Assembly: GCA_046331705.1 (NCBI GenBank)
Contig: JAXLQJ010000012.1
Coordinates: 62,001 to 126,000 of the forward strand
DNA from: a bacterium
Lineage (GTDB): Bacteria > JADJOY01
DNA length: 64,000 nt
Reading direction: 5' to 3'
Shown here: positions 1-21,228 of the stretch, in pieces
How the letters are laid out: each line of letters starts with the position of its first letter
How positions within the stretch are numbered: the first letter of the stretch is position 1
Position numbers and translations under genes: made by a program
Notes under the pieces: generated by a model
What the model saw: only the letters and a program-made list of their open reading frames with translations
Database searches by the model: none
Told to the model about the DNA's origin: nothing

Positions 1-549
1 GGCCTGCGATTTCCCGATCGCCTCCGCGGCGGCCTTGAACGCGGCGTTTTGCTGCTCGACCTCGCGCGCCGAGGTGATGTCCTGCCACTCGAGCGTGCTG
101 CCGGCGTAGTTGCCGGCCGCGTCGAACACCGCGCTCACGTGCTGGCGGATGCGCAGCGGGCCGATGTTGATCTCGCCGACGTGGGGGAGGTTCTTGGGGT
201 CGCCGAGCAGCCGGCGCTGGCGCTCCGGGTTCGCGTGGAACGCGTCGATGCAGCTTCCCAGCACCCGATCGGCGGCGAAGCCCGGGTAGACCTTCTGGAG
301 GACGGGTTCGAGCCCGCGCAGGAGCTCGAGCGACGACTTGTTGACGAAGGTCACGACCAGATCGCGGTCGACTGCCATGATCGCGGTCTTGACCCCGTCG
401 AGCGCGGAACGCAGGCGAGCCACCTCGTGACTCCGTTCGTCCGCCTTCGCGGCGCGCGGCGCGCGGCGACTCGCGTCGTAAGCCGCGCTCGGCGTCTTGG
501 TCTTGGCCTTGGCCCTGGCGGCAGTCACGCGTCGTTTCGCGGTCGGCAT
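1..549 (-). CDS. Methyl-accepting chemotaxis protein, N-terminal PAS domain (Aer2/McpB-like), 3' part outside window
   Basis: Own translation from ATG 549 (GGAAGGAG upstream): ...LDGVKTAIMAVDRDLVVTFVN...CIDAFHANPERQRRLL...GSTLEWQDIT, typical of Aer2-type PAS domains; directly downstream of cheW; frame open to the window edge. Confidence 0.8.
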   Translation of the reverse strand, partial: MPTAKRRVTAARAKAKTKTPSAAYDASRRAPRAAKADERSHEVARLRSALDGVKTAIMAVDRDLVVTFVNKSSLELLRGLEPVLQKVYPGFAADRVLGSCIDAFHANPERQRRLLGDPKNLPHVGEINIGPLRIRQHVSAVFDAAGNYAGSTLEWQDITSAREVEQQNAAFKAAAEAIGKSQA

Positions 550-596
550 TTCGTGCTTCTCCTTCCGGCCCGCGCTCGCTTGGCGCGGGTCTGATG

Positions 597-1115
597 TCAG
601 TGGGTTTGGGCGTCCAATGAGATGAGCTCGCGCTCGTTCAGCAGCCGATCGATGTCGAGGAGGATGATCATCTTCTTGTCCACGGTCGCGAGGCCCTTGG
701 CGAACTGCGCGTCCAACGCGGTCCCGAAATCCGGTGTTTCCTTGATCTCGTTCTCGGGCAGGTTGTAGACGTCGGAGACCGCGTCCACGACCACGCCCAT
801 CACGCGGCTCTGCTCCCCGCGCTCGACCTTCACCACCACCACCACCGTGGTGCGGCCGTAGTCGGCGGAATCGAGCCCGAAGCGCTCGCGCAGGTCGATG
901 ATCGGCACGATGGTGCCGCGCAGGTTGATGACGCCCTTCACGAACGTGGGCGTGTTCGGGAGCCGGGTCGCGCGCTCCCAGCCGCGGATCTCCTGCACCC
1001 GCAGGATGTCCACGCCGTATTCCTCGCCGGCGAGGATGAAGGTGAGGTATTGGCCGCCGTTCTCCGGCGATCCGCTGATGGTTCGATCGATCTCGGTCGT
1101 TTGTGCGGTGTTCAT
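597..1115 (-). CDS. cheW: Chemotaxis coupling protein CheW
   Basis: QYLTFILAGEEYGVDILRVQEIRG, GVINLRGTIVPIIDLR, GVVVDAVSDV; start refined to MNTAQ. Confidence 0.95.
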   Translation of the reverse strand: MNTAQTTEIDRTISGSPENGGQYLTFILAGEEYGVDILRVQEIRGWERATRLPNTPTFVKGVINLRGTIVPIIDLRERFGLDSADYGRTTVVVVVKVERGEQSRVMGVVVDAVSDVYNLPENEIKETPDFGTALDAQFAKGLATVDKKMIILLDIDRLLNERELISLDAQTH

Positions 1116-1125
1116 GATGGGTTCC

Positions 1126-3249
1126 TCAGGCCGCGGCGGCCATCTCTCCACGAGCCTCGGGCTCGTAGCCAGAAGTGGTGGCACGATGTCGTGAGATTTG
1201 AACGAGACCGGCGATGTCGAGGATCAACGCCACGACGCCGTTCCCCAGGATCGTGGCGCCCGAGACCCCCTCGAGCCGCCGGAAATTGGTTTCCAGGCTC
1301 TTGATGACGACTTGCTGCTGACCCAAGAGCTCGTCGACCACCAGCCCGAGCTTCTGGCCGTCGTTCTCGACCACCACCGTGAGCTGGCCCGAGAGCGAGC
1401 GGTGGCCGCCCGCCAAGCCGAAGAGCTCGTGCAGGCGCAGCACCGGGATGATCTCGTTGCGCAGGCGATAGACCTCGGCGCGCCCGGCGATCGAGTTGAG
1501 CAGCGCGCCCTGGATCTGCAGCGACTCGACGATCGAGACCAGCGGGATGATGTAGGTCTCTTGACCGACGCGCACGAGCTGGCCGTCGAGGATCGCGAGC
1601 GTCAGGGGCAGGCGGATGGCGAACGTGGTGCCGACGCCGGCTTCGGAGCGCACCGACACCGTGCCGCCCAGGTCCTGGATGTTGCGTCGCACCACGTCCA
1701 TGCCGACGCCGCGGCCCGAGACGTCGCTCACTTCCTTCGCGGTGGAGAGCCCGGGCAGGAAGATCAAGTCGAAGATCTGCTCGTCCGGGACGTCGCCGTC
1801 ACCGCCGATGAAGCCCTTCTTGCGGGCGGACTCGAGGATCCGGGCACGGTCGAGCCCGGCGCCGTCGTCGCGCACCTCGATCACCACGCTGCTGCCCTGG
1901 TGGAACGCGTTGAGGTGCACCACGCCGACCTCGGGCTTGCCGGCAGCGCGACGTTGCTCGGGCGGCTCCACGCCGTGGTCGATCGAGTTGCGGATCAGGT
2001 GCACCAGCGGATCGGCGATCTTCTCGAGCACGGTCTTGTCGAGCTCGGTGTTCTCGCCGCTGGTCCGCATCTCGATCTGCTTGCCGAGCTGGCGGCCGAG
2101 ATCGCGCACCAGGCGGGTGAAGCGATTGAACGTGCTGCCGATCGGCAGCATGCGGATGCGCATCACGCTGTCTTGAAGCTCGCGGGTGTTGCGCGCGAGC
2201 TGGGCGAGGCCCTGGCGCAACGCCTCGAGGCGGCTCAGGTCGAAGTCGTGGTCGATCTCGCCGAGCATCGACTGGGTGATGACGAGCTCGCCCACCATGT
2301 TGATGAGCGCGTCGACCTTCTCGATGCTGACGCGGATCGACGACGCCTCCGAGCTCACGGCGACCGCGCCGCTCGCGCGGCCGACCTTGTCGGGCGTGAG
2401 CGCCGCGGACGGCGCCGGGCTGGCGCCGCTGGTGGCGGGCACCGCCGTCGCGCTCGCCGCGTTCGCGACGGCGGTCGCTTGCTCCGCGTCGTCGCGCACG
2501 ACCTCCGCCGCGCCGATCTCGGTGATCGCGAGGTCGCAGTCGTCGTCCACCCACGCGAAGGCCTCGCGGATCGCGGACTCCTCGACGGCGCCCACGAGCC
2601 GCAGGTTCCACGCGAGGTAGCAGTCCTCGGGAGCGAGCTCGACGAGGCTCGGCAACGCGCTGGTGTCGCATTCCGCGCTGAGCTCGCCCAGCGACTCGAG
2701 CTCGCGCAGGATGCGCGCGGGCTCGTTGCCGGTGCGCAGCAGGTGGCGGTGCGGTCGAAAGACGATGTCGAAGCGACGCGTGGCGCCGGGCGTGCTCGCG
2801 TCGTCCGCGGACGGTGCGACGGGGGCCGCCGCCGGCGCATCTCGTTCGGGACACGATGCCAGCGCCGCCTTGAGCTCGGTTTCCAGATCGGCGATCAGCG
2901 CCGTGTCCGTGGCGGTGCCGTGGCGGGCGGCGTCGAGCATGCCGCGCAGGCCGTCCACGCACCGCAGCAGCAGATCGACCTCGCTCTGAGTGGCGGCCCG
3001 CTGACCGGCTCGATAGAGATCGAGCAAGGTCTCGACGTGGTGCGTGAAGTTGGTGACCTCGCCGAAGCCGAACGCACCCGCCGCGCCCTTGATCGAATGC
3101 GCGGCGCGAAAGATCGGGTGGATGCGCTCGCCGTCGGGGTCGTCCGCGAGGCCGAGCAAGCCGGACTCGAGGGTCTCCAGCCCTTCGCGCGCTTCCTCGA
3201 AGAATGCGTCGATCAGCTCTGCCGAGATGCGGTTCGACTTGGTCGCCAC
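1126..3249 (-). CDS. cheA: Chemotaxis histidine kinase CheA
   Basis: Hpt FRAAHSIKG, HLIRNSIDHG, SGRGVGMDVV, C-terminal CheW-like domain. Confidence 0.97.
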   Translation of the reverse strand: MATKSNRISAELIDAFFEEAREGLETLESGLLGLADDPDGERIHPIFRAAHSIKGAAGAFGFGEVTNFTHHVETLLDLYRAGQRAATQSEVDLLLRCVDGLRGMLDAARHGTATDTALIADLETELKAALASCPERDAPAAAPVAPSADDASTPGATRRFDIVFRPHRHLLRTGNEPARILRELESLGELSAECDTSALPSLVELAPEDCYLAWNLRLVGAVEESAIREAFAWVDDDCDLAITEIGAAEVVRDDAEQATAVANAASATAVPATSGASPAPSAALTPDKVGRASGAVAVSSEASSIRVSIEKVDALINMVGELVITQSMLGEIDHDFDLSRLEALRQGLAQLARNTRELQDSVMRIRMLPIGSTFNRFTRLVRDLGRQLGKQIEMRTSGENTELDKTVLEKIADPLVHLIRNSIDHGVEPPEQRRAAGKPEVGVVHLNAFHQGSSVVIEVRDDGAGLDRARILESARKKGFIGGDGDVPDEQIFDLIFLPGLSTAKEVSDVSGRGVGMDVVRRNIQDLGGTVSVRSEAGVGTTFAIRLPLTLAILDGQLVRVGQETYIIPLVSIVESLQIQGALLNSIAGRAEVYRLRNEIIPVLRLHELFGLAGGHRSLSGQLTVVVENDGQKLGLVVDELLGQQQVVIKSLETNFRRLEGVSGATILGNGVVALILDIAGLVQISRHRATTSGYEPEARGEMAAAA

Positions 3250-3253
3250 GGTG

Positions 3254-3616
3254 TCACCCGATGACCTTGCGGATGGTTGCGAGAAGCGTGTCCGGGTCGA
3301 ACGGCTTCACGATCCAGCCCGTCGCGCCGGAGGCCTTGGCTTGCTGCTTCTTGTTGGGGTCCATTTCGGTCGTGAGGACCAAGATGGGCGTGAATTTGTA
3401 GGTCGCGAGCCCGCGCAGCTTTCCGATCAGCTCGAGCCCGTTCATGTTCGGCATGTTCACGTCGGTGATGACGAGCTGGACCGAACGGCCCTGCGCCACC
3501 CTCAGCGCCGCGACACCGTCCTCCGCTTCGAGCACCTGATGCCCGGCGGACGTGAGGGTCGAGGCCACCAGCTTTCGCATCGAAGGCGAATCATCCACGG
3601 CGAGGATGCTTGCCAT
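3254..3616 (-). CDS. cheY: Chemotaxis response regulator CheY
   Basis: Single receiver domain: ILAVDDS, ITDVNMPNMNG, LTTE, GWIVKPF. Confidence 0.93.
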   Translation of the reverse strand: MASILAVDDSPSMRKLVASTLTSAGHQVLEAEDGVAALRVAQGRSVQLVITDVNMPNMNGLELIGKLRGLATYKFTPILVLTTEMDPNKKQQAKASGATGWIVKPFDPDTLLATIRKVIG

Positions 3617-3650
3617 CAGAATCTCCTTGCCTACGTCCGGTGAACGAAGA

Positions 3651-3917
3651 TCAGGTGAGAGCCAAGCGAGCCGTCAGCCCGAGCCGCGCCACGCTGGCGC
3701 GCGCGGCCGGTCCGACCTCGCTCCACCGCACGCTCGAGCCCTTTGCACCCATGTCCGCCAGGAAGGCCAGCAGCACCTGCGCGCCGGCGGTGTCGATGCG
3801 TTCGACCGCCGCGCAGTCGAGGGTCACCGAATCCCCTCCCGCGAGCGCCGCGAGCAGCTGCTCGCGAAGCGAGGACGCGCAATCCAGGTCGACGAGCGCG
3901 GGCAGCGTGACGTCCAT
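3651..3917 (-). CDS. STAS domain protein
   Basis: MDVTLP...VTLDCAAVERIDTAGAQVL; first gene of the che operon; start refined to ATG 3917. Confidence 0.85.
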   Translation of the reverse strand: MDVTLPALVDLDCASSLREQLLAALAGGDSVTLDCAAVERIDTAGAQVLLAFLADMGAKGSSVRWSEVGPAARASVARLGLTARLALT

Positions 3918-4030
3918 GGTGAGCGTCCTCGGGCCGGAATCTGAGCGCCGGGCAAATGGGTTTGGGGTGGGCGATCCGGTGCCGAGCTGACGGGCGATAC
4001 GACCCACGCCCGTTCGGCGGTAGCCCTCCG

Positions 4031-4046
4031 AGCAAGGGCCGTGCCG
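4031..4046 (-). promoter_or_regulatory. Sigma54 (-24/-12) promoter of the che operon
   Basis: Minus strand CGGCACGGCCCTTGCT matches TGGCACG-N4-TTGC with GG-N10-GC spacing, about 115 nt upstream of the STAS start. Confidence 0.7.
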
Positions 4047-4363
4047 CCGGCAGTCGGGGGCGAGCTCATCGTCGCTAGTCCTCGATTCTGCGGTTTTTTG
4101 GGGGTGATCGAGGGGGGCTCGCCGAGAACGCGGCCACCCGGGCAGAACGACCTCCCGGCCAGACCAAGCTGCCCGGGCTGGGCAAGAACTGCAGGGATCA
4201 CCTGCCCGGTGCCCGGGCTTGGTGACCGCGCCGCCGACCACCCGATTCACGAGCCGAGGTGCGCCTGGGGAGGTGCAGCTCTGGGGAACCGTGACGTAGG
4301 TGACGGTCTGGTGCGCCGCCGTGTGCGACAAGCGCCGTTTGCGCCCGTTTACGCACCCGACCC

Positions 4364-4729
4364 GTGCCGCTTCGCTATACGATCGATCCCGAACGCAGGC
4401 TCGTCGTCACGTCGTACGAGGGGACCGTGACGGATGCCGACCTGCTCGATCATCAACGCGCCATTCTGAGAGATCCGGATTTTTGCCCGGATTATCACCA
4501 GCTCTCCGATGCTCGCGGCACCACGCGGCTGCTCGTGACGGGCGACGGGATCCGGGCGCTCGCGGAGACCAACGTGTTCTCGGCGCTTTCGCGCCGCGCG
4601 ATCGTCGTGGTGGGCACCGCCCAGTTCGGGCTGGCCCGCATGTTCCAGACGCTGAGGGAGCGCGGTCCCGAGCGGATCGAGATCTTCACGGACTACGACG
4701 AGGCGGTGCGGTGGCTCGCGGCGGGCTGA
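4364..4729 (+). CDS. SpoIIAA-like / STAS-SEC14-type small protein
   Basis: YTIDPERRLV...GTVT...RAIVV...FGLARMF...IFTDYDEAVRWL pattern. Confidence 0.65.
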   Translation: MPLRYTIDPERRLVVTSYEGTVTDADLLDHQRAILRDPDFCPDYHQLSDARGTTRLLVTGDGIRALAETNVFSALSRRAIVVVGTAQFGLARMFQTLRERGPERIEIFTDYDEAVRWLAAG

Positions 4730-4765
4730 TCGGGCCAGCGCGAGCCTGACCCGAGGCTGCCACCG

Positions 4766-6805
4766 TCAGCGCGGCGCGCGTGGCGCGACGTCTCGATCCA
4801 GGTCGTCGGCGAGAAGCTGGTCGAGGCTCGCGCCGCCGCGCACGGCGAGCCGGGACCGAAAATCCGTCATCGCCTTGCGCACCCGCAACACCTTGCCGTT
4901 GACGAGATTGGCCACGGTGATCGCGGTGTCCTCGGTGAGGGTGTTGCTCGGCAGCATGCGGCGCAGCGCATCCACGTCGATCAGGTCGCGAACGCGAAGG
5001 CTCGCGAGCGAGTCGAGAAAGCGCTTGGCGGCGACGCGCTCGTGCTTGGGGATGCGGGCCAGCACCGCGTTCGGATGGTCTTGGTATTCGTCGGCGATCT
5101 CGGCGAGGCCGTCGCGCAAGAGGTCGAGCGCTTCGTCGGCGAGCTGATTCGCGAAGAAGCGGAACACGTCGTTGGCCGTGACGGGCTCGAGCCCGCGCGC
5201 GGTGTGGTCCTTCCAGTCGGTCACCAGCAGCACGTCGACCTCGGAGAGCAGGAACCCGAAGTCGTCGTCGTGGGCGAGGTCGCGAATCAGGTCGTTGATC
5301 TCGGCGGCGCCCATCTCGCGAGTGAAGGCCCGCGGCACGGTCGTGAGCCCCGTGATCACGTCGTCGAGGCTCGCGTCGCCGAAGATCGGCGACCCGAAGG
5401 CATCCGCCACCGCGTCGCGCACCGGTGCCAGGGCACGGGCGACGGCGGCGGCGCTGCGGGCGCCGCTCGGATCGGCGAGCAGTCGATCGAGGCTCGCTTC
5501 CGCGTCGGCGAGCGATCGTCGAGCACGGCGCAGCGCCCGTGCGGCGTCGGGGAGCGCGCCCTCGAGCCGGGCCGCCGCGCGATCGAGGACGGCGGCGAGG
5601 TCGTGCAGCGCGCCCGCGCTGCGGGTCACGAGCTCCGTCGCCTGGGCGGCGGACGCGGGCGAGCCGCTCGCGAGGGCATCGAGCGCGTGGTCGAGGCGCT
5701 CGACCATCCGGCGCGCGGAATCCCGCACGCGCGTGGCGGAGTCGAGGAAGCGCTGCTCGTCGGCGTCGAAGGCGTAGCGCGCCGGGCGATTCTCGATCTC
5801 CCCCTGCTCGATGCGGTAGCCGAGCGCCGCGCGCGCACGGTCGCCGAAGCCGAGCTCGAGGGTCAACCAGGTCTCGAGGACGTTCTCCTCCACGGTGCCG
5901 AAGCGGTCGGTGCCGACTCGCACCCGCGCACCGGGCGTGATCGTCACGTGGTCGTCGAGGAAGCGCACGGCGGTGAGGTTCGCCCACGCGAGATGCGCGT
6001 CGGCGATGCGTCGCTCCACCGTGCCGCCGTAGGCGCGGGTGAGGGTGAGGTCGCCCCCCAGCGCGAGCCCGCTGCGGGTGGTCAGCGCGATCTCGAGGCC
6101 GAGCTCGCTGGTGGTGCTGCCGATCGCGCCGTGCAGCCGGAGCGTGGTCGCGAGCGAGGCGTCTTCCGCGCCGAGGCGAAGGCCGCCATCCCCGGCGAGC
6201 CACGGCTCGGGAACGGCCAGCAAGGTCACATCCGTGGTCGCGAGGCTGTAGTCGGCGTCGGGAAGGCGCACCGTCGGTGCCAGGTGCGTGAAGAGCGCGA
6301 CATCCGTCGTCGGCGCGAGCGTCGCGCCGAGCGCCGCGCCGAGCGAGAGCTGCGGGAAGACGTGCTCGACGTCGATGCGCGCGCCATAGCGCGCGGCGAG
6401 GCGCAGCGGGCCCAGCGGGGTGACGGAGTCGACCGGCTCGCCGAGCGGCGCCGTGACGTAGGCCGACAGGAACGAACGCAGCGCCGAGTCGCGGCTCTCG
6501 TCGTCGATGTACGGCTCCCCGTCGATCCAGAAGAGCGATGCGGCGACGCCCCAGCGGGTACGGCCGTCGTCGCGTTCGAGGGCGAGCGAGCCGAAGGGCG
6601 CGAAGAAGATCTCGTCGCCGCGGTAATGGCCAGCGGTGAGCGAGAGATCGGGAAGCAAGGCGTAGCGCACGGCCTGGGTGCGATCGTCCAGCACGATCTC
6701 CCAGGGTGGCGGCTGGTCGCCAGCGGCGGCCGCCGCCGTCGCCCACAGCGCGCAGCCACATCCTGTGACACGCCAAACGTGGCGCCACGAGGGGGCGCGT
6801 GACAC
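4766..6805 (-). CDS. Hypothetical exported protein: beta-strand-rich N-half, helical C-half
   Basis: 679-aa ORF with protein-like composition; signal-peptide-like N-terminus (ALWATAAAAAG); alternating hydrophobic strands; no family recognised. Confidence 0.6.
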   Translation of the reverse strand: MSRAPSWRHVWRVTGCGCALWATAAAAAGDQPPPWEIVLDDRTQAVRYALLPDLSLTAGHYRGDEIFFAPFGSLALERDDGRTRWGVAASLFWIDGEPYIDDESRDSALRSFLSAYVTAPLGEPVDSVTPLGPLRLAARYGARIDVEHVFPQLSLGAALGATLAPTTDVALFTHLAPTVRLPDADYSLATTDVTLLAVPEPWLAGDGGLRLGAEDASLATTLRLHGAIGSTTSELGLEIALTTRSGLALGGDLTLTRAYGGTVERRIADAHLAWANLTAVRFLDDHVTITPGARVRVGTDRFGTVEENVLETWLTLELGFGDRARAALGYRIEQGEIENRPARYAFDADEQRFLDSATRVRDSARRMVERLDHALDALASGSPASAAQATELVTRSAGALHDLAAVLDRAAARLEGALPDAARALRRARRSLADAEASLDRLLADPSGARSAAAVARALAPVRDAVADAFGSPIFGDASLDDVITGLTTVPRAFTREMGAAEINDLIRDLAHDDDFGFLLSEVDVLLVTDWKDHTARGLEPVTANDVFRFFANQLADEALDLLRDGLAEIADEYQDHPNAVLARIPKHERVAAKRFLDSLASLRVRDLIDVDALRRMLPSNTLTEDTAITVANLVNGKVLRVRKAMTDFRSRLAVRGGASLDQLLADDLDRDVAPRAPR

Positions 6806-6836
6806 GGGGGCCTCGGTCGAACGCGAGCGGACGCGT

Positions 6837-7205
6837 TCAGCCGTCGATCGCCGCGACCGAGTTGCCGCCGGGAAAGCGGGGAAGGGTGCTGAGCGAGCGC
6901 GGATCGAGCGCGGGGCGGGGATCGTCGGTGGGCGGCAGATAGAGCTCGACCGCCCAGCCGTGGGCGTTCTCGGGCACGGAGTCGAGGGCCTGCAGCAGGG
7001 CGTCGAGGACGCGATCCTCGCCGCCGGGCTCGGAGCTCACGCAGTAACCGACGACGCGTGCGTACGGCCAGGCGCTCCACCACAGATCGAGGAGCAAGCC
7101 CGTGGGGCCGTGCTCCACCACCAGCTCCCACAGCCCGCGCTCGGAGAAGAGCTTGCGACGCGTGCCGGGCGCATGCCGATGTCGGCGCGCTTCTCGGAAT
7201 TGCAT
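6837..7205 (-). CDS. Hypothetical protein
   Basis: 122-aa ORF with GGAGG upstream, co-oriented with and 31 nt upstream of 4766-6805. Confidence 0.55.
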   Translation of the reverse strand: MQFREARRHRHAPGTRRKLFSERGLWELVVEHGPTGLLLDLWWSAWPYARVVGYCVSSEPGGEDRVLDALLQALDSVPENAHGWAVELYLPPTDDPRPALDPRSLSTLPRFPGGNSVAAIDG

Positions 7206-7263
7206 GGTTGCCTCCGGATGACGGCGTGCGCCCCCGTCGTCGCCGTCCTCGTCGTCGCGGATG

Positions 7264-7314
7264 ATGCTAAATCAATATCACGGCTATTGCAAATACGAAT
7301 CAACGTGTTATCGT
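7264..7314. promoter_or_regulatory. Back-to-back sigma70-type promoters sharing a palindromic -35
   Basis: AT-rich island. Plus strand: TTGCAA (7287-7292)-N16-TATCGT (7309-7314) with TG extension. Minus strand: TTGCAA-N17-TAGCAT (7269-7264). Confidence 0.55.
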
Positions 7315-7497
7315 TGGGTCATGCGCCGACCGCCCGCGACACCCGCCACGGTTCGAAGCCGCGCTCGTGGATGCCCGGGAGACCCAGCCATGGTGGCTGG
7401 ATGCACCCCTTGCGCGGATTCGTGCCCCCGTGACGGGTCCGCGGGCGGTGGGCCATCCTTTCCTCGGCTGCCGCGTCCAACGCGGCGCTGAGACGCC

Positions 7498-9189
7498 ATG
7501 AAGTCGCGTGAGCTGAGCGTTCGCATCGGCGTGCTGTTGCGCGAGCTGCGGAAGGATCGCGGCCTCTCCCAGCGCGCCGCGGCCGAGCGCGTCGGCTGGC
7601 CCCAGCCCAAGCTCTCGCTGCTGGAGCAAGGCCGCCTCGATTTCGGCGCCCTCGAGCTGGTGGTGGGGCTCGCGGACGAGCTGGGTGTCGCGCCCGCCGA
7701 GGTGCTGGCGACGGCGCTCGGAGAAGCCGGACCCGACGCACGGCCCGGTGCGGACCGGGCATGGTTGCTGTCGGCGTCGCGGTTGCTGACCGTCCTCACG
7801 GAGGGCGGAAAGGCGCTGGTGCTCGATCGGGTGTCGCCCTTCCAGGCGCTCGGCGCCGACGCGCCGCCCGCGCGATGGGTGATGGCGCTGGTGCGCGCCC
7901 GCGCGTTCGGCGCCGTGCCGAGCGGCGCGCATGCGAGCGGGTGGATCCTGCCGTTCGCGCCGAGCCTGATCCGGCTCGGTTGCGAGGAGCTCGAACGCGC
8001 GCCCGAGGCGAGCGCGCTGACCGCCGAAGCGCGCGCCGCGATCGGTCGCGAGGCGCAGCGTTTCGCGCTGGCCCACGATCTCGCGGCACGTCCCGCCGAG
8101 GCGCTGGCGCTCGCGGATGCCCTGGCCGCCGAGTACCCGATGCCCGAGATCGAGTACCTGCGCGGTGTGCTGCACCATCAGCTCGGTGCCACGCCGCTGG
8201 TGGTCAAGGGCTGCGTGCAACGCGCGCTCGATCGCTTGGACGAGCGGCCGCCCACCGACTTGCGCGCCGACCTCGTCGTGGCGGGGTTGCTCGCGCAGCT
8301 CGAGGTCGCCGCCGATGCGGCGGAGCACGCTCACGACACCACCACGCCCGCGTCGGAGCGCCGCATCGATCGGGCCATCCGGCTCCTGGATGCGGCGGGC
8401 TTCGCGCAGGGCCGGGTTCACCTGGAGGTGCGCCGTGCGGTCGCGGATCACGAGCGTTTGCGCGTTGCCCGCACGCCGGCGTCGCGCGCGACACCCGCCG
8501 TCTTAGCGCCGGATGCGACCTGGATCGCCGAGTGGCACGCGGTCGCCGCGGTGCTGGCGCGCGCACGCGCCGAGTACCAAGCGCTCGGCGTGGCGATGGG
8601 GACGGCGTACGTCGAAGACTGGCTGGCGCGGCACCACGAGCTCGCCGGCGAATACGAGCGCGCGCTCGACTGGGTGGCGAGCGCCGCCCACCGCTATCGC
8701 GATCTCGGTCAACGTCGCTGGGAATGCTCGGCCGAGATCCGCGCCGCGCATTACCGAGCGGCGCTCGCGTTCGCCGTGCTCGGCGTCCACGACGATGCCG
8801 CGGTGACCGGCCGCCGCCTCGCGGGCGCGGCGGGAGATCGCGCCGTGGCCCTTCTCGACGAGACCCAGGCGAGCGTCGAGGCGCAGCTCGCCAGCGGCGA
8901 CGTCACGCCCTACGAACGCCCGCTTCTCGAGATCCATCGCGCGCTCGCCGCGGGGCGGCTTGCGGGGTTTCTCGCGCTGCGGCGCGGGGAGCGCGGACGC
9001 ATCGACGCGCTCGCCCGTGGCTACCGCGCGGCGAAGGACGCCGCGCTGGCGCAGCTCGACGACGAGGTCGACGCCACCGAGGCGACCCGGCGCGACGCGC
9101 TCGCGTCGTTTCGCGCCCTCGAGCGCGCGCATCCGCTGCTCCGCGGTGGATCGAGGACAGGAGCGAGGACCGGCCGTGACACGCACTGA
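7498..9189 (+). CDS. XRE-family HTH regulator with long helical (TPR-like) C-terminal region
   Basis: [32 protein letters not shown] Cro/C1 HTH followed by about 490 aa of Ala/Leu/Arg-rich helical sequence. Confidence 0.75.
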
Positions 9190-10771
9190 CGCCACCCGTC
9201 CCGGACGCTTTCCGTGGCTGCTGGTCTGGACCGCTGCGGCGCTGCTGTGGATCGGCTCGTTGTCGGGCTGCTCCGGGACCGGGCCGAATCCGGCGCCCCC
9301 GCAGCCCATCCTGCCGGCGCGCGTCATCGGCTGCGGGCTGCTCGGCACGGCGCGCTCCGGTTCCCCGGCGGGCGCCGGGATTCCGGTTCGGATCGTCGAT
9401 GCGGCGCTTGGCGAGGGCGCCGAGAGCGCGGCGCTGGCGCTCGGCACGACCGACGCACGCGGCTGCTACGCGATCGACCTGCCCGACACGGTCGCCGTTC
9501 GCTCCGGCGCCCGCTTCCAGGTGGAAGGGCAGGCGGGCGCGCTGCCACTGCGCGCGATGCTGCTCGAGCGCACCCTCGGCGAGGACGTGCAGGTCTTCCC
9601 CGCCGATTGGTCCGTGAGCAGCGAGTCCTGCACGTTGCTGACGGTCTCGAGCCTGGAGGCCTCGGGCCGCGCGCTCGACTCGTTGAGTCGCAGTGAGGTC
9701 GATCGGGTGCGCTCGGTGTGCGAGCTGGTGGCGCTCGTCGACAGCATCGAGAGCGCGATTCCCGAGCAGGTTCAAGACGTGACGGACACCAGCCTCGGCG
9801 CCGAGGACTCGCCGGTGCGCAACGCGCTCGACGCCGTTGGCGAGGTGCCGCCCGCGCAGGCGCTCGACGATCCGGATGGAGATGGCATCGACACCGCGGT
9901 CGACGATTGCCCCGCGGTCGCCGACGCGCAGCAGCGCGATGGCGACGGCGACGGAGTCGGAGACGCGTGCGACGACTGCCCCGTCGATCCGGATGCCGAT
10001 CAGCTCGACGCCGATGGCGACGGCATCGGCGACGCCTGCGACGTGTGCCCGAGCGTCGCCGATCCCGACCAGCTCGACACCGACGGCGACGGCATCGGTG
10101 ATGCCTGCGACGCGACGCCCGCGTGTACCGATTCCGACGGCGACGACATCTGCGACGACGGCGACGCGAGCGGACTAGCCGGCGATCGGCCGTGCACGGG
10201 CGGCATTCTCGAGGGCTGCGACGACAACTGCCCGAGCCGCCCCAACCCGTTCCAGGTCGACAGCGACGGCGACGGCGTCGGCGATGCCTGTGACGTCTGC
10301 CTGGATCTCGCCGATCCCACCCAGCTCGACACCGATCTCGACGGCGTGGGCGACGCTTGCGACGACTGCCCGCAGGTGGCGAACGCCGACCAGCTCGACG
10401 GCGATGGCGACGGTTTCGGGGACGCGTGTGACCAGAACCCGAGCTGCACGGACTCCGATCTGGACGACGTCTGCGACGACGGCGACGCGAGCGGCATCGC
10501 CGGCGACCGTTCGTGCGCCCCTGGCGAGCGCATCGGCTGCGACGATTCGTGCGTGAGCGTGCCCAACACGGACCAATCCGACACCGACGGCGACGGTGTG
10601 GGCGACGCCTGCGACGACTGTCCGCAGGTGGCGGACCGCGATCAGCTCGATTCGGACGGCGATACGCTCGGCGACGCGTGCGATGCGTGTCCCACCGAGC
10701 CGGGCTCGCCGCTCGTTCCGGATCCCCCCGATCCCAACGCGCCGCTTCCCGGCTGCCCCGCGCCGATTTGA
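9176..10771 (+). CDS. Lipoprotein with thrombospondin type-3 (Ca-binding) repeats
   Basis: GTG start overlapping the XRE gene end; hydrophobic stretch plus lipobox LSGC; many DxDGDGxGDACD repeats. Confidence 0.85.
9868..10690 (+). repeat. Intragenic TSP3 repeat array with an internal duplicated block
   Basis: Repeated gacggcgacggc..ggcgacgcctgcgac units; block [20 protein letters not shown]...GCDD.C occurs twice (about 10123 and 10444). Confidence 0.85.
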
Positions 10772-10829
10772 CGCCGCTGCCGCCGCGGACGCGGGCAGGG
10801 CGGCGCGTTCGGAACGTCCCGAGTCAGCC

Positions 10830-12629
10830 TCAGAACTCTTGCCAGTAGTCGTCGTCCGCGCCGTTGCCGCTCGCGTGCGCTCGCTGGGTTGCGGTGGCGC
10901 GCGGCGCGGGCGGCGCCGCTCTCACCGACGGCTTGGGTACCGCAGCCGGGGGCGCTGGGGCTCGGCTCGTGGTCGCGGCGGCGCTCTTTTCCTCGGAGTC
11001 GGCGCCGTCCTCGTCGCCTGCCGGCTCCGCGACGCTCCTGGGCTTCTCTGCGTCGGCGATGGCATCGCGTACGCCCGCCGGCTGCGCGCCCTCGTCGTGC
11101 GCGGTGCGGAAGAAGCCCATCAATCGATCGAGGTCGCGCGCTTGATCGGCCATCGCCTCGCTGGCGGCGGCGGATTGCTCCACGAGCGCGGCGTTTTCCT
11201 GCGTGGATGTGTCCATCCGCGTCACGGCCTGGTTGATCTGGTCGACGCCGGTTGCTTGCTCGGCACTGGCCGTGGCGATCTCGCCGATGATGTCGCTCAC
11301 CTTCTTCACGCCAGCCACGATCTCCGCGAGCGTCTCGCCCGAGCGGTTCACGAGCTTGCTGCCTTCCCCCACCTTGACGACGCTCTCGCGGATCAGTGCC
11401 TTGATCTCCTTCGCCGCGGCAGCGGCGCGTTGCGCCAGATGTCGCACCTCGGTGGCGACCACCGCGAAGCCGCGACCGTGCTCGCCGGCGCGCGCGGCCT
11501 CCACCGCAGCGTTGAGCGCGAGCAAGTTGGTCTGGAACGCGATCGCGTCGATCACGCCGATGATCTCGGCGATCTTCTTGCTCGATGCGTCGATCGCGCC
11601 CATCGCCTGGATCGCTTCGCCGACCACCACGCCGCCTTTCTCGGCCGCCTCGCGGGCGCTCGTGACGAGCTGATGGGCTTGCTGGGCGTTTTCCGCGCTC
11701 TGACGCACGGTGCTGGTCATCTGCTCGACGCTCGCCGCCGTCTCGCCGAGCGCGGAGGCCTGCGCTTGGGTGCGGTTGTTGAGGTCGGCGTTGCCCGCCG
11801 AGATCTCGCTCGAGCCTTGGCGGATGGCGCGCGACGTATCGCGGATTCTCCCGACCATCGTGCGTAGCTGCTCGAGGGCGCTGTTGAGCGCCCGCGCCAT
11901 GCGGCCGAGCTCGTCGTCCGCGTTCACCGCGAGCTGATTGCGCAGATCGCCGGCGGCGAGCGCTTCGAGGACGCTCACGGTCGATGTGAGGGGTCGGGTG
12001 ATGCTGCGGCAGTACCGCCAGATGCCGAGCGCCAGCAACGCGCCGAAGCCGGCGGTCGCCAGCAACATGGTGCGGCGAAAGCGTTGGCTCTCGGCCACCA
12101 CGTGCTCCAGGCCGACGTCCAAGCTGACCGCGCCCAGCACGCGACCCTCCTCGACCTGATGACAGGTCGTGCAGTTCGTGCCCAGCAAGTCGGTGGTGGC
12201 GATCATCGGCAGCACGGCGCGGTAGACGAGCGTTCCGTCGCGGGTCTCGGCGCCGAGGAAGGGCTTCGCCGTGCTCAAGACGTTCGCCTCCACGGCGTCG
12301 ATGGACTCCGGCTGCTTGCCGCTGGATCCGTACTGCTCGGAGACGGCGGGGCCGGCGAGCACGCGCAGCGAGCGAATGCCTCCGCTGCGCTTGAGCTCGT
12401 TGGTCACGGCCTCGATCCGCGCGAGGTCCGCCGAGTCCATGGCTTGCACGAGGCTCGTGAACGCGAGCTGGCTCGCCCCGTCGGCGAAGACGCGGCCCTG
12501 GTCGAGGGCCATCTGGCTCTGCTTGCGGGTGGCGAGGACGATGGTTCCGCCGCTCGTGAAGGCGAGCACCAGCACGAAGGCGCCCACCAACCGCGCCGAT
12601 ATCGGTAAGGACTGCACTTTGCGCCACAT
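10830..12629 (-). CDS. Methyl-accepting chemotaxis protein with periplasmic heme-c sensor and C-terminal pentapeptide
   Basis: TM-sensor (NCTTCHQ)-TM-HAMP-MCP ([30 protein letters not shown]); ends YWQEF; start refined to MWRKVQ. Confidence 0.93.
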
Positions 12630-12645
12630 GTCCCAAGACCCTCCT

Positions 12646-14478
12646 TCACCCGAGTCCACGAAACGTGCTCTTGCTCGAACCGTCTCCGGGAGTGCGCGCG
12701 GCGGCGCCCTCGGCGATGCTCACGGCCACTTCCCCGTGGGCTTCCGCGGTGGTGCCCCGCGCGGGCGGCGGCTGCCTGCTCGGGCGCGCGCGGGATCGTG
12801 ACGACCCCGACCGCGCTGGCCCGCGGGTCGGCGTCCCCTCGGTTGCGCCCGTCGGGGACGCGGCCTCGCGGGCCGTTGCGGTCGCCCGGCTCCGCGCGGC
12901 CACGGCCGGAGCGCCGCGGTCGCCGACGGAGTCCATGCCGTCGTCACGATGCGTGCGGAAGAACTGCATCAATCGGTCGAGCTCGCGCGCTCGGTCCGCC
13001 ATGGACTCGCTGGCGGCGGCGGACTGTTCGACCAGCGCGGCGTTCGCTCGCGTCGCCGAGTCCATGCTGGTCACGGCCTGATTGACGTGCTCGATCCCCG
13101 CGGCCTGTTCCGCGCTGGCGGTCGCGATCTCGCCGATGATGTCGCTCACAGTCGTCACGCCGGCGAGGATCTCGGTGAGCGTCTCGCCGGATCGATTCAC
13201 GAGCTTGCTGCCTTCGGCGACCTTGCCGACGCTCTCCCGGATGAGTGCCTCGATCTCCTTCGCGGCAGTGGCGGAGCGATGGGCGAGGCCACGTACCTCC
13301 GCGGCGACCACCGCGAAGCCGCGGCCCTGCTCGCCGGCGCGCGCGGCTTCCACCGCCGCGTTCAGCGCGAGCAAGTTGGTCTGGAACGCAATGCCGTCGA
13401 TCACGCCGATGATCTCGGCGATGCGCTTGCTGGACGCGTCGATCTCGCCCATCGCCGCGATCGTCTGGCCGACCACGGCGCCGCCGTTCTCGGCCGTGGC
13501 GCGGGCGTTCGTCACGAGCTGATTCGCGTGTCGTGCGCTGTCCGCGCTCTGCCGCACGGCGCTGGTCATCTCCTCGACGCTCGCCGCCGTCTCGCCGAGC
13601 GCGGAAGCCTGCGCCTGGGTGCGGTCGTTGAGATCGGCGTTGCCCGCCGAGATCTCGCTTGCGCCTCGGGTGATCGCCTGCGACGCCGCGCGGATCTGGA
13701 TCACCATGTCGCGCAGCTTCTCGGTCGCCGTGTTGAGCGCGTGCCCCATGCGACCGAGCTCGTCGTCGGACGTCACGTGCACGCGGTTGCGCAGATCGCC
13801 CCCGGCGAGCCCCTCGAGAACCGCCACCGTCGAAGCGAGCGGCCGCGTGATGCTCCGGCAATACCGCCAGACGCCCAGCGCCAGGAGCAGCCCGACGCCC
13901 GCCGTGGCGAGCAGCATCGTGCGCTGGAACGTCTGGTTCTCCGCGACCACCTGATCGAGGCCGACGTCCAGGCTCAGCGCGCCCAGGACCCGGCCCGCCT
14001 CGACCTGATGGCACGCGGTGCAGTTGGCACCCAGGAAGTCCGCACGGGCGATCATCGGTAGCACCGCGCGGTAGACCGGGATGCCGTCGCGGGTGGCGGG
14101 GCCGAAGAACGGCTGCCCCTCTCGGATCACGCGCTCCTCGACGCCGTCGACCGGATATTTCGGGTTCTTCTTCGGGCCGAAGCGCGCGATCACCGCCGGA
14201 CCGCGAACGACGTGGAGCGAGCGCACGGACCCGCTTCGCTCGAGCTCGTCGACGGCCGCGTTCACCTGCCTGAGATCCGCGAACCGCATGGCCTCGATCA
14301 CCGCCGCGAACGCCATGTGGCTCGCCCCCTCGGCGAACCGCCGCGCCTGACTCAGCGCCAGCAGGTTCTGCGCGCGGGTCGCCAGCACGATCGAGCCCGC
14401 GCTCGTGACGGCGAGCACTAGGACGAACGTGCCCACCAAGCGCACGGAGATGGGTAGGGACTGCACTCTCCGCCACAC
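12646..14478 (-). CDS. Methyl-accepting chemotaxis protein with periplasmic heme-c sensor (paralog)
   Basis: Same architecture, NCTACHQ, MCP signature; no xWxxF tail. Confidence 0.93.
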
Positions 14479-14492
14479 GACCAGCGCCCCCT

Positions 14493-14588
14493 CGGCAGGC
14501 GAGCCAAGTGAAAAACGCAGGGGTTACCGCGGAGTTGCGCCGAAGCGCCCGGGGCCGACGGCGTGGCCCCTGCGGCTCGCTGGTGCCG
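14493..14588 (-). other. Candidate structured 5' leader RNA
   Basis: Nested complementary segments 14493-97/14584-88, 14499-505/14574-80, 14517-23/14567-73 and a GCGC-UUCG-GCGC hairpin (14537-48). Confidence 0.4.
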
Positions 14589-14599
14589 CGCGGTCGGAA

Positions 14600-14615
14600 C
14601 GCAAGATCCTTGCCG
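14600..14615 (-). promoter_or_regulatory. Sigma54 promoter of the tandem MCP genes
   Basis: Minus strand CGGCAAGGATCTTGCG, GG-N10-GC. Confidence 0.6.
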
Positions 14616-14738
14616 CGACCGAGCGAGCCGGCGGTGGACCTCCCCCCGGGCGCAGTCTGGACTTACCCCCGGATCCGGTCGTGAATCGGGGGGGCGGGGC
14701 GTGGGCGAGAATCGAGCGCTGGAACGCGCGAACCGGCG

Positions 14739-15254
14739 CTACGGCTCGGCCTTGGCTCGCCGCCGCTCGGCGGGAAGGCCGTCGTGAGGGCCGAGCGTGC
14801 GCTCGGGGGCGTCCTTCCACCAGCGCTCGCCGATCTGCGCCTTGCGCTCGGGGTTGAGCGGATAGACGAGCTGGTTATCGGGCCGGGTTCGATCTCCGAC
14901 CACCAGCAGCCGCGCCGGACGATCGGAGTCGTTGATGAACGTGTGACAGATCCCGGTGCCTGCGGGAAAACCGACGGCGTCGCCGGGCTCGAGGCGGAAC
15001 ACCTCGCCATCGATCCAGGCGTCGACCGAGCCTTCGAGCACGTACACGAACTCGTCCTCGGTCTTCTCCGCGTGCGGATAGGAGAGCCGTCGGCCGGGCA
15101 GCAACAGCTCGTGATGGATGCCGATGCGCGCGAGCCCGAAGGCGTGGCCGAAGGGCGATCCCAGGCTGTGGAGCTCGTCGCTACCCGGATAGCTCCAGGC
15201 TTCGTCTTCCTGAAGCTCTCGCCAATGCTTGATGAACGGTGGCCGGCTGGTCAT
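14739..15254 (-). CDS. Cupin domain protein
   Basis: GIHHELLLPGRRLSYPHAEKTEDEFVYVLEG...GFPAGTGICHTFIN; ATGA overlap with the GT2 stop. Confidence 0.9.
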   Translation of the reverse strand: MTSRPPFIKHWRELQEDEAWSYPGSDELHSLGSPFGHAFGLARIGIHHELLLPGRRLSYPHAEKTEDEFVYVLEGSVDAWIDGEVFRLEPGDAVGFPAGTGICHTFINDSDRPARLLVVGDRTRPDNQLVYPLNPERKAQIGERWWKDAPERTLGPHDGLPAERRRAKAEP

Positions 15255-16573
15255 GGGCGTTCTCTCCCGGATGGAGGAAGGGTCGGATCGCCGCGATCGA
15301 GGGCGCGGAAGCGGGAGAGTAGGCCCTCTTCGTCGCTCCGCGCCAGTGGCTCGAGGTCTAGCGCGACTCCGTGCCACGCCAGGATCGCCAGCGCCACCTC
15401 GGCGATGGGTTGCCGCGGATACGCGACGGCGGTGAGGTGATGCACGAGCTTGAGCGCGCGAAAGGGACTGAGCCACGCGAAGAAGCGCGCGCGGAAGGAG
15501 GCCAGCGAGGTGGCGTTGGCGCGCATCTCGTGGAGCGCTTCGGGCAGGCCGTGATCGCGCAGGAACGACGCGGCGGGGGCGGCGACCTCGCCGAGCCCGG
15601 CGAGCGGGTCGTCACCGGTGCTCGCCCACCAGCGATCGATGCGCGCGATCAGCTCGGCGAGAACCCGATAGACGCGGGGATCGTAGCCGCGAATCGAGGG
15701 ATCCTCGCGTGCCAGCGCCTCGCCGACGGCACGGCCGGTGCCGAACGGGACGCGGCTGGAAACACGCGGAGACGGATGGACGGTGGTGGAGCGAATCTCG
15801 CCCACCCGCGCGTGCAGCGCGAGCTTCTGCAGGAAGTAGAAGTCCTCGCCAGCCTGACGGCGGTTCATGCCGCCGTGCGTCGCGTACGCCACGGCGCGCA
15901 CCGCCATGCTCGAGCCGACGGTCTGGATGGCGCTCGGATGGCCGGCGAGCCCGAGCCCGTGGACGTGGCAGCGCAGGAACAGCTCGTAGCCGACGATCGC
16001 CGCGCGATGGCGCGGATCGGCGAGATCCTCGTGGGGATGCTCGAAGTGCACGGCCGCCGCGTCCGCCTCTGGGTGCGCGTCGAACCACTCGGCGAGCGCC
16101 ACGAGGTAGCTCGGGGCGACGGTGCAGTCGGCATCGAGGCACGCGATCACGCCGCGCGGACGGCCCACGCGATCGAGGCGCAGGGCGGCCTCGTCCATGG
16201 CGAGCTTCCGCGCCAGGCCGACGCCCGCGTGACGCGCCGGCAGATCGAGCGCCTCGATCACGTGGACGCGGATCGGCGCGGCGGCCGCCGCCGCGGCCGC
16301 GCCGAAGGCACGCGCCTCGCGGGCGTCGAGCGCCGAGCGCGCGCGCACCTCCGCGTCATCGCGCTCGGAGGCGTTCGCGATCACGATGACCTCCACGCCG
16401 ATGGCGGGAGCCGCGGCGCGCGCGAGCGACGCCAGCGTCTCGCCGAGCGCGGGCTCGTCCTTGCACGGGATCGCGACCACCAGGCCCAGATCGGGAGCGG
16501 GCGGCTCCTCGATCGAGGGTCGAAAGCACGGCTGCTTTCGCAGATACTGCGCGATCGGAGTCTCGCCCGCCAT
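15251..16573 (-). CDS. Family 2 glycosyltransferase
   Basis: VVAIPCKDE, GVGLARK, CLDADC (DxD), GEDFYFLQK, SSRVPFGTG. Confidence 0.85.
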   Translation of the reverse strand: MAGETPIAQYLRKQPCFRPSIEEPPAPDLGLVVAIPCKDEPALGETLASLARAAAPAIGVEVIVIANASERDDAEVRARSALDAREARAFGAAAAAAAAPIRVHVIEALDLPARHAGVGLARKLAMDEAALRLDRVGRPRGVIACLDADCTVAPSYLVALAEWFDAHPEADAAAVHFEHPHEDLADPRHRAAIVGYELFLRCHVHGLGLAGHPSAIQTVGSSMAVRAVAYATHGGMNRRQAGEDFYFLQKLALHARVGEIRSTTVHPSPRVSSRVPFGTGRAVGEALAREDPSIRGYDPRVYRVLAELIARIDRWWASTGDDPLAGLGEVAAPAASFLRDHGLPEALHEMRANATSLASFRARFFAWLSPFRALKLVHHLTAVAYPRQPIAEVALAILAWHGVALDLEPLARSDEEGLLSRFRALDRGDPTLPPSGRERP

Positions 16574-17927: not shown

Positions 17928-18049
17928 CGAGTCCCCCGGTTCGCGCGCGGCCGCGCCGCGCGCCGAGTCGTGGCGGGTCATTTAGCTCGCGCCTCGAAGT
18001 GCTCGCAACCGTCGCTCGGGCCGTCGGTCCGCGGGCGGCTCGGCCGGGC

Positions 18050-19898: not shown

Positions 19899-19911
19899 CC
19901 TCGTCTCCTCG

Positions 19912-20586: not shown

Positions 20587-20606
20587 GGCGTGCCTCGATC
20601 GCGCGC

Positions 20607-20633
20607 AGCATACGAGTGTAGCAATCGTATTAC
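20607..20633 (-). promoter_or_regulatory. Putative NikR operator
   Basis: Minus strand GTAATAC-N13-GTATGCT containing the inverted repeat ATACGA-N9-TCGTAT, 20 nt upstream of nikM and downstream of nikR. Confidence 0.7.
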
Positions 20634-21210: not shown

Positions 21211-21228
21211 GCCGTACCTCTCTTGCGC

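Follow-up and report, generated by a model that had tools for sequence, protein, structure and literature searches.

A phylum-restricted divergent gene cassette with a predicted HTH-TPR regulator and a conserved intergenic hairpin

Between positions 4766 and 10771 of a 64,000-nucleotide (nt) stretch of bacterial DNA with a GC content of 70% (contig JAXLQJ010000012.1, positions 62,001 to 126,000; the whole stretch is termed the window, and all coordinates are positions within it), two gene arms diverge from a short AT-rich island: one encodes a regulator of 563 amino acids (aa) with a helix-turn-helix (HTH) domain and a lipoprotein, the other a 122-aa protein and a 679-aa exported protein. Through comparison of the genome that holds the window (G000) with the other species genomes of the same GTDB phylum (G001–G005), we find that these genes belong to a cassette that is a real, conserved, undescribed and phylum-restricted unit, and that the intergenic region of this cassette harbours a hairpin of 132 nt, previously undescribed and a candidate new structured RNA. 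As to function, we tentatively read the cassette as an autonomous, phylum-restricted divergent system of the HTH-tetratricopeptide repeat (TPR) type that would set the expression of envelope proteins, with the 5' end of the regulator-lipoprotein mRNA carrying the hairpin as a cis-acting element: a reading to which we give somewhat less than an even chance.

Results

Conservation and gene content of the cassette

The phylum comprises six species genomes, all from one family. Both the 122-aa gene and the hairpin are present in 6/6 genomes (the hairpin as a single copy), and the regulator gene in 5/6, the exception being G004, whose 2.6-kb contig stops just past the hairpin. In every locus that reaches far enough (4/4: G000, G001, G003 and G005) the lipoprotein gene adjoins that of the regulator, and the orthologues in the latter three show 66–84% identity. 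The 679-aa gene was identified in 4/6 genomes: neither at the locus nor by genome search was it found in G003 (86% complete), where 480 nt of non-coding DNA separate the 122-aa gene from genes for CheR and CheD, or in G004 (74% complete), where a UDP-galactopyranose mutase gene follows. A fixed four-gene module is thus not supported; the core of the cassette, about 3.6 kb in size, consists of the regulator, lipoprotein and 122-aa genes, with the gene for the putative barrel protein being optional. Between genera, the cassette proteins are 57–66% identical. The flanks of the cassette are made up of chemotaxis (Che) genes and genes for methyl-accepting chemotaxis proteins (MCPs) in G000, G001 and G003, one flank in G001 carrying a gene for a CHASE-PAS hybrid kinase, and of genes for a GMC oxidoreductase and a UDP-galactopyranose mutase in G005. 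Since the same unit recurs among different neighbours, we consider the cassette to be discrete. A first-pass annotation of the window had proposed a self-contained, undescribed module of four genes and had offered gene-neighbourhood conservation as a check, with genes that do not co-occur speaking against it: a discrete, conserved and undescribed unit stands, whereas its four-gene composition does not, and the distribution of the 679-aa gene comes close to the failure of co-occurrence that had been named. Literature searches on RRNPP and Gram-negative HTH-TPR regulators, on HTH_31 in combination with tetratricopeptide, and on Myxococcus XRE-TPR regulators returned no description of the cassette.

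Only one further metagenome contig carries part of the cassette (L020, 1.9 kb). This was considered as an independent lineage and rejected, its identities to G000 being equal to those of G005 and its intergenic sequence being the same by eye. As a separate observation, in G005 (L008:7852-9174) and G004 (L044:343-1593), the two genomes in which no Che genes adjoin the cassette, the leftward arm is immediately followed by the UDP-galactopyranose mutase (GLF) gene, a hint that the cassette may be connected with surface glycans containing galactofuranose.

A conserved hairpin in the intergenic region

Alignment of the intergenic DNA of the relatives revealed a block that is far more conserved than the cassette proteins and that folds into a long, irregular hairpin. 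Its parts are a 14-bp GC-rich basal stem, a variable and covarying middle helix, a conserved internal asymmetric loop and a 47-nt apical part, the last of which is almost invariant across genera, unpaired nucleotides included, and holds a 7-3-7 hairpin (CCAGCCA-TGG-TGGCTGG; invariant in 5/6 genomes, with one change in G004). In this alignment 94.7% of the cells are paired, as compared to 34–42% in slid controls, and 7 pairs are changed on both sides, as compared to 2.1 ± 1.1 in shuffles, none of 500 shuffles reaching 7; the middle helix retains its pairing through two-sided changes at 6 pairs. A covariance model gives one strong match in each of the six genomes (103–141 bits), in every case flanked by the regulator gene and the 122-aa gene, and in a search of 185,579 species genomes an invariant 27-nt core of the hairpin was recovered, besides its own genome, from the five sister genomes and no others. 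No Rfam 15 family matches the hairpin at E≤10 except for two microRNA models (E 0.21 and 6), which score far short of their gathering thresholds and which we regard as noise. Whilst the AT-rich patch noted in the first-pass annotation is indeed there, the hairpin, the most conserved feature of the intergenic region, had been overlooked.

Both strands of the hairpin can fold, with a minimum free energy of -81.1 kcal/mol (z -3.9) for the plus strand and of -93.1 kcal/mol (z -6.1) for the minus strand. Six one-sided changes in the stems leave a wobble pair on the plus strand where the minus strand would carry an A·C mismatch, with fewer cases the other way, and based upon these G-U-compatible substitutions and the promoter geometry described below we provisionally place the hairpin on the plus strand. 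A small open reading frame (ORF) within the hairpin, whose start codon is ATG in four genomes and GTG in two, was considered and rejected: owing to a 1-nt deletion, G005 reads the invariant core in another frame, and the hairpin is hence not coding.

The hairpin is followed by a T-rich tract in 6/6 genomes (3–6 T within the next 12 nt), although a terminator scan (loop 3–8, ≥5 T of 8) did not call this combination. The scan did return a single terminator-like site (minus strand, 7316-7301, 5 pairs), but the other genomes lack it. Between the end of the hairpin and the ATG of the regulator gene lie 48, 49, 49, 97 and 337 nt, and this variability argues against a riboswitch that masks the regulator start codon, whilst a 5' stabiliser, an attenuator or an independent RNA of ~140 nt could accommodate it. 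In the longest spacer, that of G003, a 57-nt GC-rich repeat unit is inserted, with two copies 150 nt apart (L043:10905-11120). Copies of this repeat are dispersed through intergenic DNA, with no fewer than 58 matches in G003 and no fewer than 50 in G000, and are sometimes arranged in tandem arrays with a spacing of ~150 nt (e.g. G000:C1:205927-207093).

Divergent promoters and presence in RNA libraries

The AT-rich island from which the two arms diverge has a GC content of 38%; no other 60-nt segment of the 64 kb falls below 45% GC, and none within bases 1–20000 below 50%. Promoter motifs were read here from conservation across the genomes, not from a consensus scan (Table 1). On the leftward side, a TAnnAT motif lies 17–18 nt from the palindromic TTGCAA hexamer in 6/6 genomes; on the rightward side, TGn plus TAnnnT is found at 16 nt in 5/6, with G005 exhibiting TGG plus CATGAT at 17 nt. 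From the -35 hexamer it is 33–34 nt to the beginning of the basal stem (five genomes measured, G002 left out), which computed from the spacers is 10–11 nt past the -10 hexamer, so that the predicted transcript start would fall 2–6 nt before the stem. As a single -35 hexamer appears to serve both directions, we infer that the two promoters are not occupied simultaneously. A candidate operator, an imperfect inverted repeat, overlaps the leftward -10 hexamer and spacer; a search of its own genome with TGATR-N9-TATCA returned four matches including that of the cassette, the other three exhibiting GC-rich spacers.

Near-identical copies of the locus occur in many DNA runs from activated sludge and wastewater, and small parts of it are present in six metatranscriptome runs. 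From four sludge or wastewater runs, RNA contigs were obtained at a depth of 2–9 (6600-6840, 6790-6947, 6796-6934, 6975-7236 and 7775-7989): these show presence in RNA libraries, and cannot show strand, ends, a single transcript or absence. They cover the 122-aa gene together with 31 nt of 5' untranslated region up to 7236, short of the predicted start near 7257, span the junction between the 122-aa and 679-aa genes, and also include part of the regulator gene.

Predicted proteins of the cassette

The region contains many long, overlapping ORFs. All four cassette ORFs display a coding-type GC content by codon position (0.86–0.90 at position 3, 0.52–0.54 at position 2), and the alternatives that overlap them do not have this pattern. 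The two two-gene arms facing away from a unique AT-rich patch, as the first-pass annotation had described them, are therefore present in the ORFs at their given coordinates, as are the chemotaxis genes it had noted on both flanks (see below) and the calcium-binding-repeat lipoprotein whose start is overlapped by a regulator with an HTH domain and a long helical region.

The N-terminus of the regulator matches the Pfam family HTH_31 (43.7 bits, cut-off 27; E 3.4e-11; aa 10–69) and also HTH_37 (27.4 bits, cut-off 27) and HTH_3 (24.0 bits, cut-off 23), with the HTH spanning aa 8–69. Apart from HTH families there is no Pfam match, and in particular no TPR family was detected, either for the whole protein (E≤0.01) or for aa 90–563 (E≤10). 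Weak sub-threshold matches are to HTH models of the HipB/MqsA antitoxin type, and PADLOC returns generic HTH models only (HTH_VI, E 2.7e-5; capH, E 0.056). An AlphaFold2 (AF2) model built with six relatives is all-helical, with a mean predicted local distance difference test score (pLDDT) of 72.8: the linker after the HTH is poorly modelled, whilst the superhelix is best at aa ~340–550, with scores >90 across much of aa 340–550. Searching the PDB with this model using Foldseek gave 14 matches at E≤0.001 with TPR proteins on top, the best being the TPR domains of LGN/Pins (E 2.5e-4; template modelling (TM) score by target 0.5–0.65); Rap of phage phi3T and ComR rank 25 and 39. At the level of the predicted fold, the regulator is thus an XRE-type HTH joined to a TPR-like superhelix. 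Its sensor part (aa 90–563) forms 6 clusters among 5.8 billion proteins, the relatives being 549–593 aa long. The regulator ATG is not preceded by a Shine-Dalgarno-like sequence in the window (7470-7497), which together with the strong GGAGG ribosome-binding site of the 122-aa gene implies weak or unusual initiation of regulator translation. In the equivalents of this segment in G001, G002 and G003, a Shine-Dalgarno-like sequence is mostly missing as well (e.g. GACGCCATG, CCCGCCATG, CATCCCATG).

For the lipoprotein, the most plausible start appears to be the GTG at 9176, which is preceded by the Shine-Dalgarno-like AGGAGCGAGGA and overlaps the end of the regulator gene (stop at 9187-9189) by 14 nt; an overlap between the two ORFs is also seen in G003 (11 nt, from ORF coordinates), and this arrangement suggests that the lipoprotein is translationally coupled to the regulator. 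Read directly off the sequence, the signal peptide ends in a lipobox, LSGC, with Ser at +2. The N-terminal ~285 aa do not belong to a family and are followed by Cys/Asp-rich TSP type-3 calcium-binding repeats (Pfam TSP_3: 42.3 bits, cut-off 25; E 6e-11), a region with 27% Asp+Glu and 23 Cys. Against the NCBIfam model for MtsC (NF047638) the protein reaches 154.1 bits, with a cut-off of 350.

The 122-aa protein is basic over aa 1–25 (pI 12) and acidic over the remainder (pI 4.2), and as it exhibits neither a signal peptide nor a transmembrane segment (maximum 19-aa Kyte-Doolittle value 0.74) it is probably cytoplasmic. It forms 5 clusters among 5.8 billion proteins, every one 122 aa in length, and an alignment of 7 sequences contains 56 invariant columns; at its C-terminus it carries a conserved tail, DPRxLxxLPRF. 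No family was identified in Pfam, NCBIfam or PADLOC and no usable match in the ESM Atlas; profile searches of PDB sequences with the alignments of this and of the 679-aa protein gave a best E value of 0.06, which represents coiled-coil noise.

The 679-aa protein, whose gene has a GC content of 0.90 at the third codon position (GC3), begins with an Ala-rich signal peptide, after which ~14–16 strands are predicted (aa ~48–346), the last of them ending in an ARYAF motif close to aa 346; these are followed by a four-helix bundle (aa ~348–490) and a further conserved helical region up to aa 679. The AF2 model, built from 4 sequences, has a mean pLDDT of 44 and is hence poor, so that matches of its fold are weak evidence: using VIA-align, aa 121–339 of this low-confidence model match porins (CymA, Z 11.6; OmpG, Z 10.9) and aa 346–490 match generic four-helix bundles (Z ~12). 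Leads from the ESM Atlas are to outer-membrane (OM) barrel clusters only (BBP2_2, DUF6850, DUF3570), all below the confidence bars and with a TM score <0.4 by query, and neither the protein nor its sub-domains matched a Pfam, NCBIfam or PADLOC family, outer-membrane protein (OMP) families included. Taken together, the protein is probably an outer-membrane barrel with a helical, probably periplasmic, extension. Its family comprises 4 clusters among 5.8 billion proteins, and a profile search of 1.84 billion representatives gave 3 clusters, including a distant full-length relative with 35% identity (P0009), the locus of which was not found in the genome or metagenome contig collections. That the 679-aa protein could not be assigned, as stated in the first-pass annotation, is upheld, and both proteins of this arm are orphans. 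We also observed a match of the helix bundle (aa 336–470, window 5396-5800) to TarH, the ligand-binding domain of Tar-type chemoreceptors, which is not significant (E 0.03; 14.6 bits, cut-off 25.2); the next-best match in the family searches with the 122-aa and 679-aa proteins was MCE (E 0.067), far below the cut-off.

Table 1. Positions of cassette genes, hairpin and candidate promoter elements in the window.
Feature	Position	Strand	Basis or remark
679-aa gene	4766-6805	-	ORF list, codon-position GC
122-aa gene	6837-7205	-	ORF list, codon-position GC
AT-rich promoter island	7260-7319	both	Conservation
Candidate operator, imperfect inverted repeat rTGATr-N9-TATCr	7262-7280		Overlaps leftward -10 and spacer
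Leftward -10, TAGCAT	7264-7269	-	17-nt spacer, toward 122-aa gene
Palindromic TTGCAA, candidate shared -35	7287-7292	both	6/6 genomes
Rightward extended -10, TGT-TATCGT	7306-7314	+	16-nt spacer, toward hairpin and regulator
Long irregular hairpin, candidate structured RNA	7323-7454	+ (presumed)	Alignment, covariation
563-aa regulator gene	7498-9189	+	ORF list, codon-position GC
Lipoprotein gene	ORF 8960/9176-10771, preferred start GTG 9176 (531 aa)	+	ORF list, codon-position GC

Genomic surroundings in the window

According to Pfam, one flank of the cassette carries genes for CheW, CheA, CheY and a STAS-domain protein on the minus strand, and the opposite flank two MCP genes in tandem. The STAS gene (3651-4331, minus strand) lies directly upstream of CheY-CheA-CheW, and divergent from it, between the 679-aa and STAS genes, lies a 121-aa ORF (4364-4729, plus strand) with coding-type GC3 and a weak SpoIIAA-like match (E 0.023). 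This ORF had escaped the first-pass annotation, the gene inventory of which was otherwise correct for the four cassette ORFs; the STAS gene and the 121-aa ORF may form a partner-switching pair attached to the chemosensory cluster. The two MCPs (10830-14478) are paralogues of 609 and 610 aa with HAMP and MCPsignal domains, their genes overlapping one another and being convergent with the lipoprotein gene, and the same pair adjoins the cassette in G001. Nearer to the MCP genes are a cupin gene (14739-15476) and a family-2 glycosyltransferase gene (15251-16573), and further along, an ApbE gene accompanies a cluster for nickel/cobalt uptake (NikR-CbiM-CbiQ; 18769-22446, minus strand).

Discussion

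Proposed mechanism

In an autonomous cassette of the kind outlined at the beginning, the binding events, the strand and role of the hairpin, the localisation of the proteins and the output are what we infer from comparative sequence and predicted folds. The HTH-TPR protein would bind the AT-rich island, the candidate site being the inverted repeat across the leftward -10 hexamer and spacer, and a ligand in the groove of the TPR-like domain (a peptide, a protein tail or a small molecule) would then shift transcription between the two arms, which could not initiate simultaneously if they share the -35 hexamer. At the 5' end of the regulator-lipoprotein mRNA, the hairpin would act in cis as a stabiliser or as an attenuator, and might also dock a factor, possibly the 122-aa protein with its basic tail. 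The output would be an altered set of envelope or surface proteins, namely the lipoprotein and the barrel protein; control of surface proteins by the cassette, which the first-pass annotation had already suggested, is in this sense presumed. A more far-reaching version, in which the hairpin represents a new class of regulatory RNA that binds a protein or ligand and forms, together with the 122-aa protein as candidate RNA binder and with the regulator, a bistable switch, seems to us improbable; were it true, it would combine mutually exclusive promoters, feedback of an RNA and a small protein on the regulator arm, and two envelope states.

A number of observations weigh against the autonomous cassette as we read it. 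The six genomes are from a single family and thus not independent. A strict scan for sigma-70 consensus promoters returned no site, and the candidate operator has no other convincing copy in the genome and hence no support from a regulon. None of the RNA contigs from the four runs, which cannot show absence, covers 7237-7774 including the hairpin. The hairpin folds better on the minus strand, and some wobble pairs that are kept on this strand are mismatches on the plus strand, so that its placement on the plus strand is provisional. The spacer between hairpin and regulator ATG is not conserved, which would be expected of an independent small RNA no less than of a leader. Finally, the model of the 679-aa protein has a mean pLDDT of only 44.

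Alternative explanations

The variable spacer leads directly to an alternative in which the hairpin is an independent small RNA gene with its own promoter, producing a transcript of ~135–145 nt that acts in trans or sequesters a protein, whilst the regulator gene would have a promoter of its own that has gone unrecognised. The conserved extended -10 promoter immediately upstream of the hairpin would suit such a gene, as would the strong GC-rich basal stem followed by T residues in all six genomes, the range of ATG distances (48–337 nt) that tolerates even the insertion of a dispersed repeat in G003, and the near-invariant unpaired nucleotides of the apical part, which suggest specific recognition. 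However, there is no conserved promoter-like sequence between the hairpin and the regulator ATG, the T tract would make a weak intrinsic terminator, one that the scan did not report, and no contig from the four metatranscriptome runs crosses the hairpin, even if this is not evidence of absence. Overall we consider a separate small RNA gene to be unlikely, albeit the main rival of the autonomous reading. That the conserved block acts at the level of DNA, as operator half-sites or as a cruciform bound by the HTH protein, is less probable again and has only a small chance of being correct. Dimeric XRE proteins usually bind inverted repeats, and the block contains such repeats, for example the 7-3-7 repeat CCAGCCA-N3-TGGCTGG, invariant in 5/6 genomes, and 13-bp arms 101 nt apart; in addition, both strands fold equally plausibly. 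The two-sided changes at 6 pairs of the middle helix would, however, be unneeded for a protein operator, and the most conserved stems contain single changes that are compatible with G-U pairing.

Regarding the cassette as a whole, its location inside or beside Che/MCP genes in 3/5 loci with informative flanks (G000, G001 and G003) raises the question of whether it is an accessory input or output of the chemosensory pathway and not autonomous. Only 2–3 CheA genes are present per genome searched, and the weak TarH match of the helical bundle (E 0.03) would point in the same direction. Against this, the TarH match is far below the cut-off, no Che gene is found in 18 kb of the G005 contig or in the whole 2.6-kb contig of G004, and the Che clusters of G000 and G003 are probably the same orthologous cluster: the CheA of G003 best matches the CheA of the window with 48% identity, so that the linkage may reflect one historical event. 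We give a chemosensory accessory a small chance only. That the cassette is a toxin-antitoxin system or an island for anti-phage defence, in which the XRE protein would serve as antitoxin or repressor, is scarcely credible. XRE HTH domains are common in such systems, and the sub-threshold antitoxin-type (HipB/MqsA) and PADLOC HTH_VI matches are of this kind, but the PADLOC matches are confined to the HTH with none for the other three proteins, the cassette is single-copy across the whole phylum and hence not patchy, the annotated flanking ORFs include no integrase or mobile-element gene, and the partners are envelope proteins.

The autonomous cassette remains the reading that we prefer. Its compact layout, comprising a promoter pair, a candidate operator, a covarying RNA and an orphan protein, means that it could be rebuilt in a laboratory host. 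If the hairpin RNA proves to bind a ligand or protein, a new RNA motif would be gained; otherwise, four orphan families will at least have been cleanly annotated. How general either result would be is limited by the narrow distribution of the cassette.

Comparison with known systems

Known comparators of the hairpin are 5'-terminal stabiliser hairpins, transcription attenuators and long-hairpin RNAs such as 6S RNA. The hairpin of the cassette resembles these in its position at the start of a predicted transcript, in its long and irregular form with a conserved asymmetric loop inside, and in the T-rich tract by which the stem is followed; it differs in that no Rfam family including 6S matches it at E≤10 and in being single-copy and phylum-specific. 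The lipoprotein shares its Cys/Asp-rich TSP type-3 repeats with myxobacterial proteins such as MtsC (NF047638), although it carries a lipobox rather than a MYXO-CTERM anchor and scores 154 bits versus the 350 required. The 679-aa protein, in turn, recalls an OmpA-like architecture and the porins CymA and OmpG, with a signal peptide, ~14–16 predicted amphipathic strands, an ARYAF-type aromatic end of the last strand and a soluble domain thereafter; in contrast to these, it belongs to no OMP family in Pfam and its C-terminal 330 aa are helical and without family, all of this resting upon a low-confidence model.

The best structural matches of the sensor domain, the TPR domains of LGN/Pins (PDB IDs: 3sf4, 4a1s, 3ro2; E 2.5e-4 to 1e-3 over ~360–420 aligned columns), are eukaryotic, show 11–15% identity and are not joined to an HTH, so that what they share with the regulator is the repeat fold only, which is no evidence of homology. 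The TPR domains of LGN/Pins bind extended peptides in their inner groove. Among bacterial systems, the RRNPP receptors of Firmicutes and phages (PlcR, ComR, Rgg, Rap and AimR) are alike in combining an N-terminal XRE-type HTH with a TPR-like superhelix and in being encoded beside their probable target genes. The cassette host, by contrast, is a diderm-type organism from another phylum, and no sequence relationship was detected.

In case of a true RRNPP-like quorum sensing system, the TPR domain would bind a secreted and re-imported peptide encoded nearby, and the first-pass annotation had drawn this analogy. According to PMC10075063, such systems are recognised by five criteria, among them a receptor of about 250–500 aa that matches TPR hidden Markov models (HMMs) and a directly adjacent propeptide gene of 10–100 aa, the product of which is secreted via Sec or PptAB. 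The HTH plus TPR-like architecture agrees with the analogy; measured against these criteria, however, the receptor is 563 aa long and the neighbouring small protein has 122 aa without a signal sequence. There is furthermore no Pfam TPR HMM match for aa 90–563 even at E≤10, and the sole small intergenic frame is not conserved as a protein, with frames differing between genomes. The Foldseek check proposed with the analogy supported a predicted TPR-like fold, whilst RRNPP receptors (Rap and ComR) appear only at ranks 25 and 39, below the eukaryotic LGN/Pins domains. Quorum sensing of this type is accordingly a very improbable explanation, and the cassette works at most "like" an HTH-TPR ligand-sensing regulator without being a member of the RRNPP family. 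As judged from titles and abstracts, the papers retrieved on RRNPP and Gram-negative HTH-TPR regulators all concern Firmicutes, mycobacteria or phages. To our knowledge, ligand-sensing HTH-TPR regulators are well studied only in Firmicutes: compared with these, the cassette would represent a sequence-unrelated version of the HTH-TPR principle, found in a diderm-type uncultured phylum of six genomes and tied to envelope proteins.

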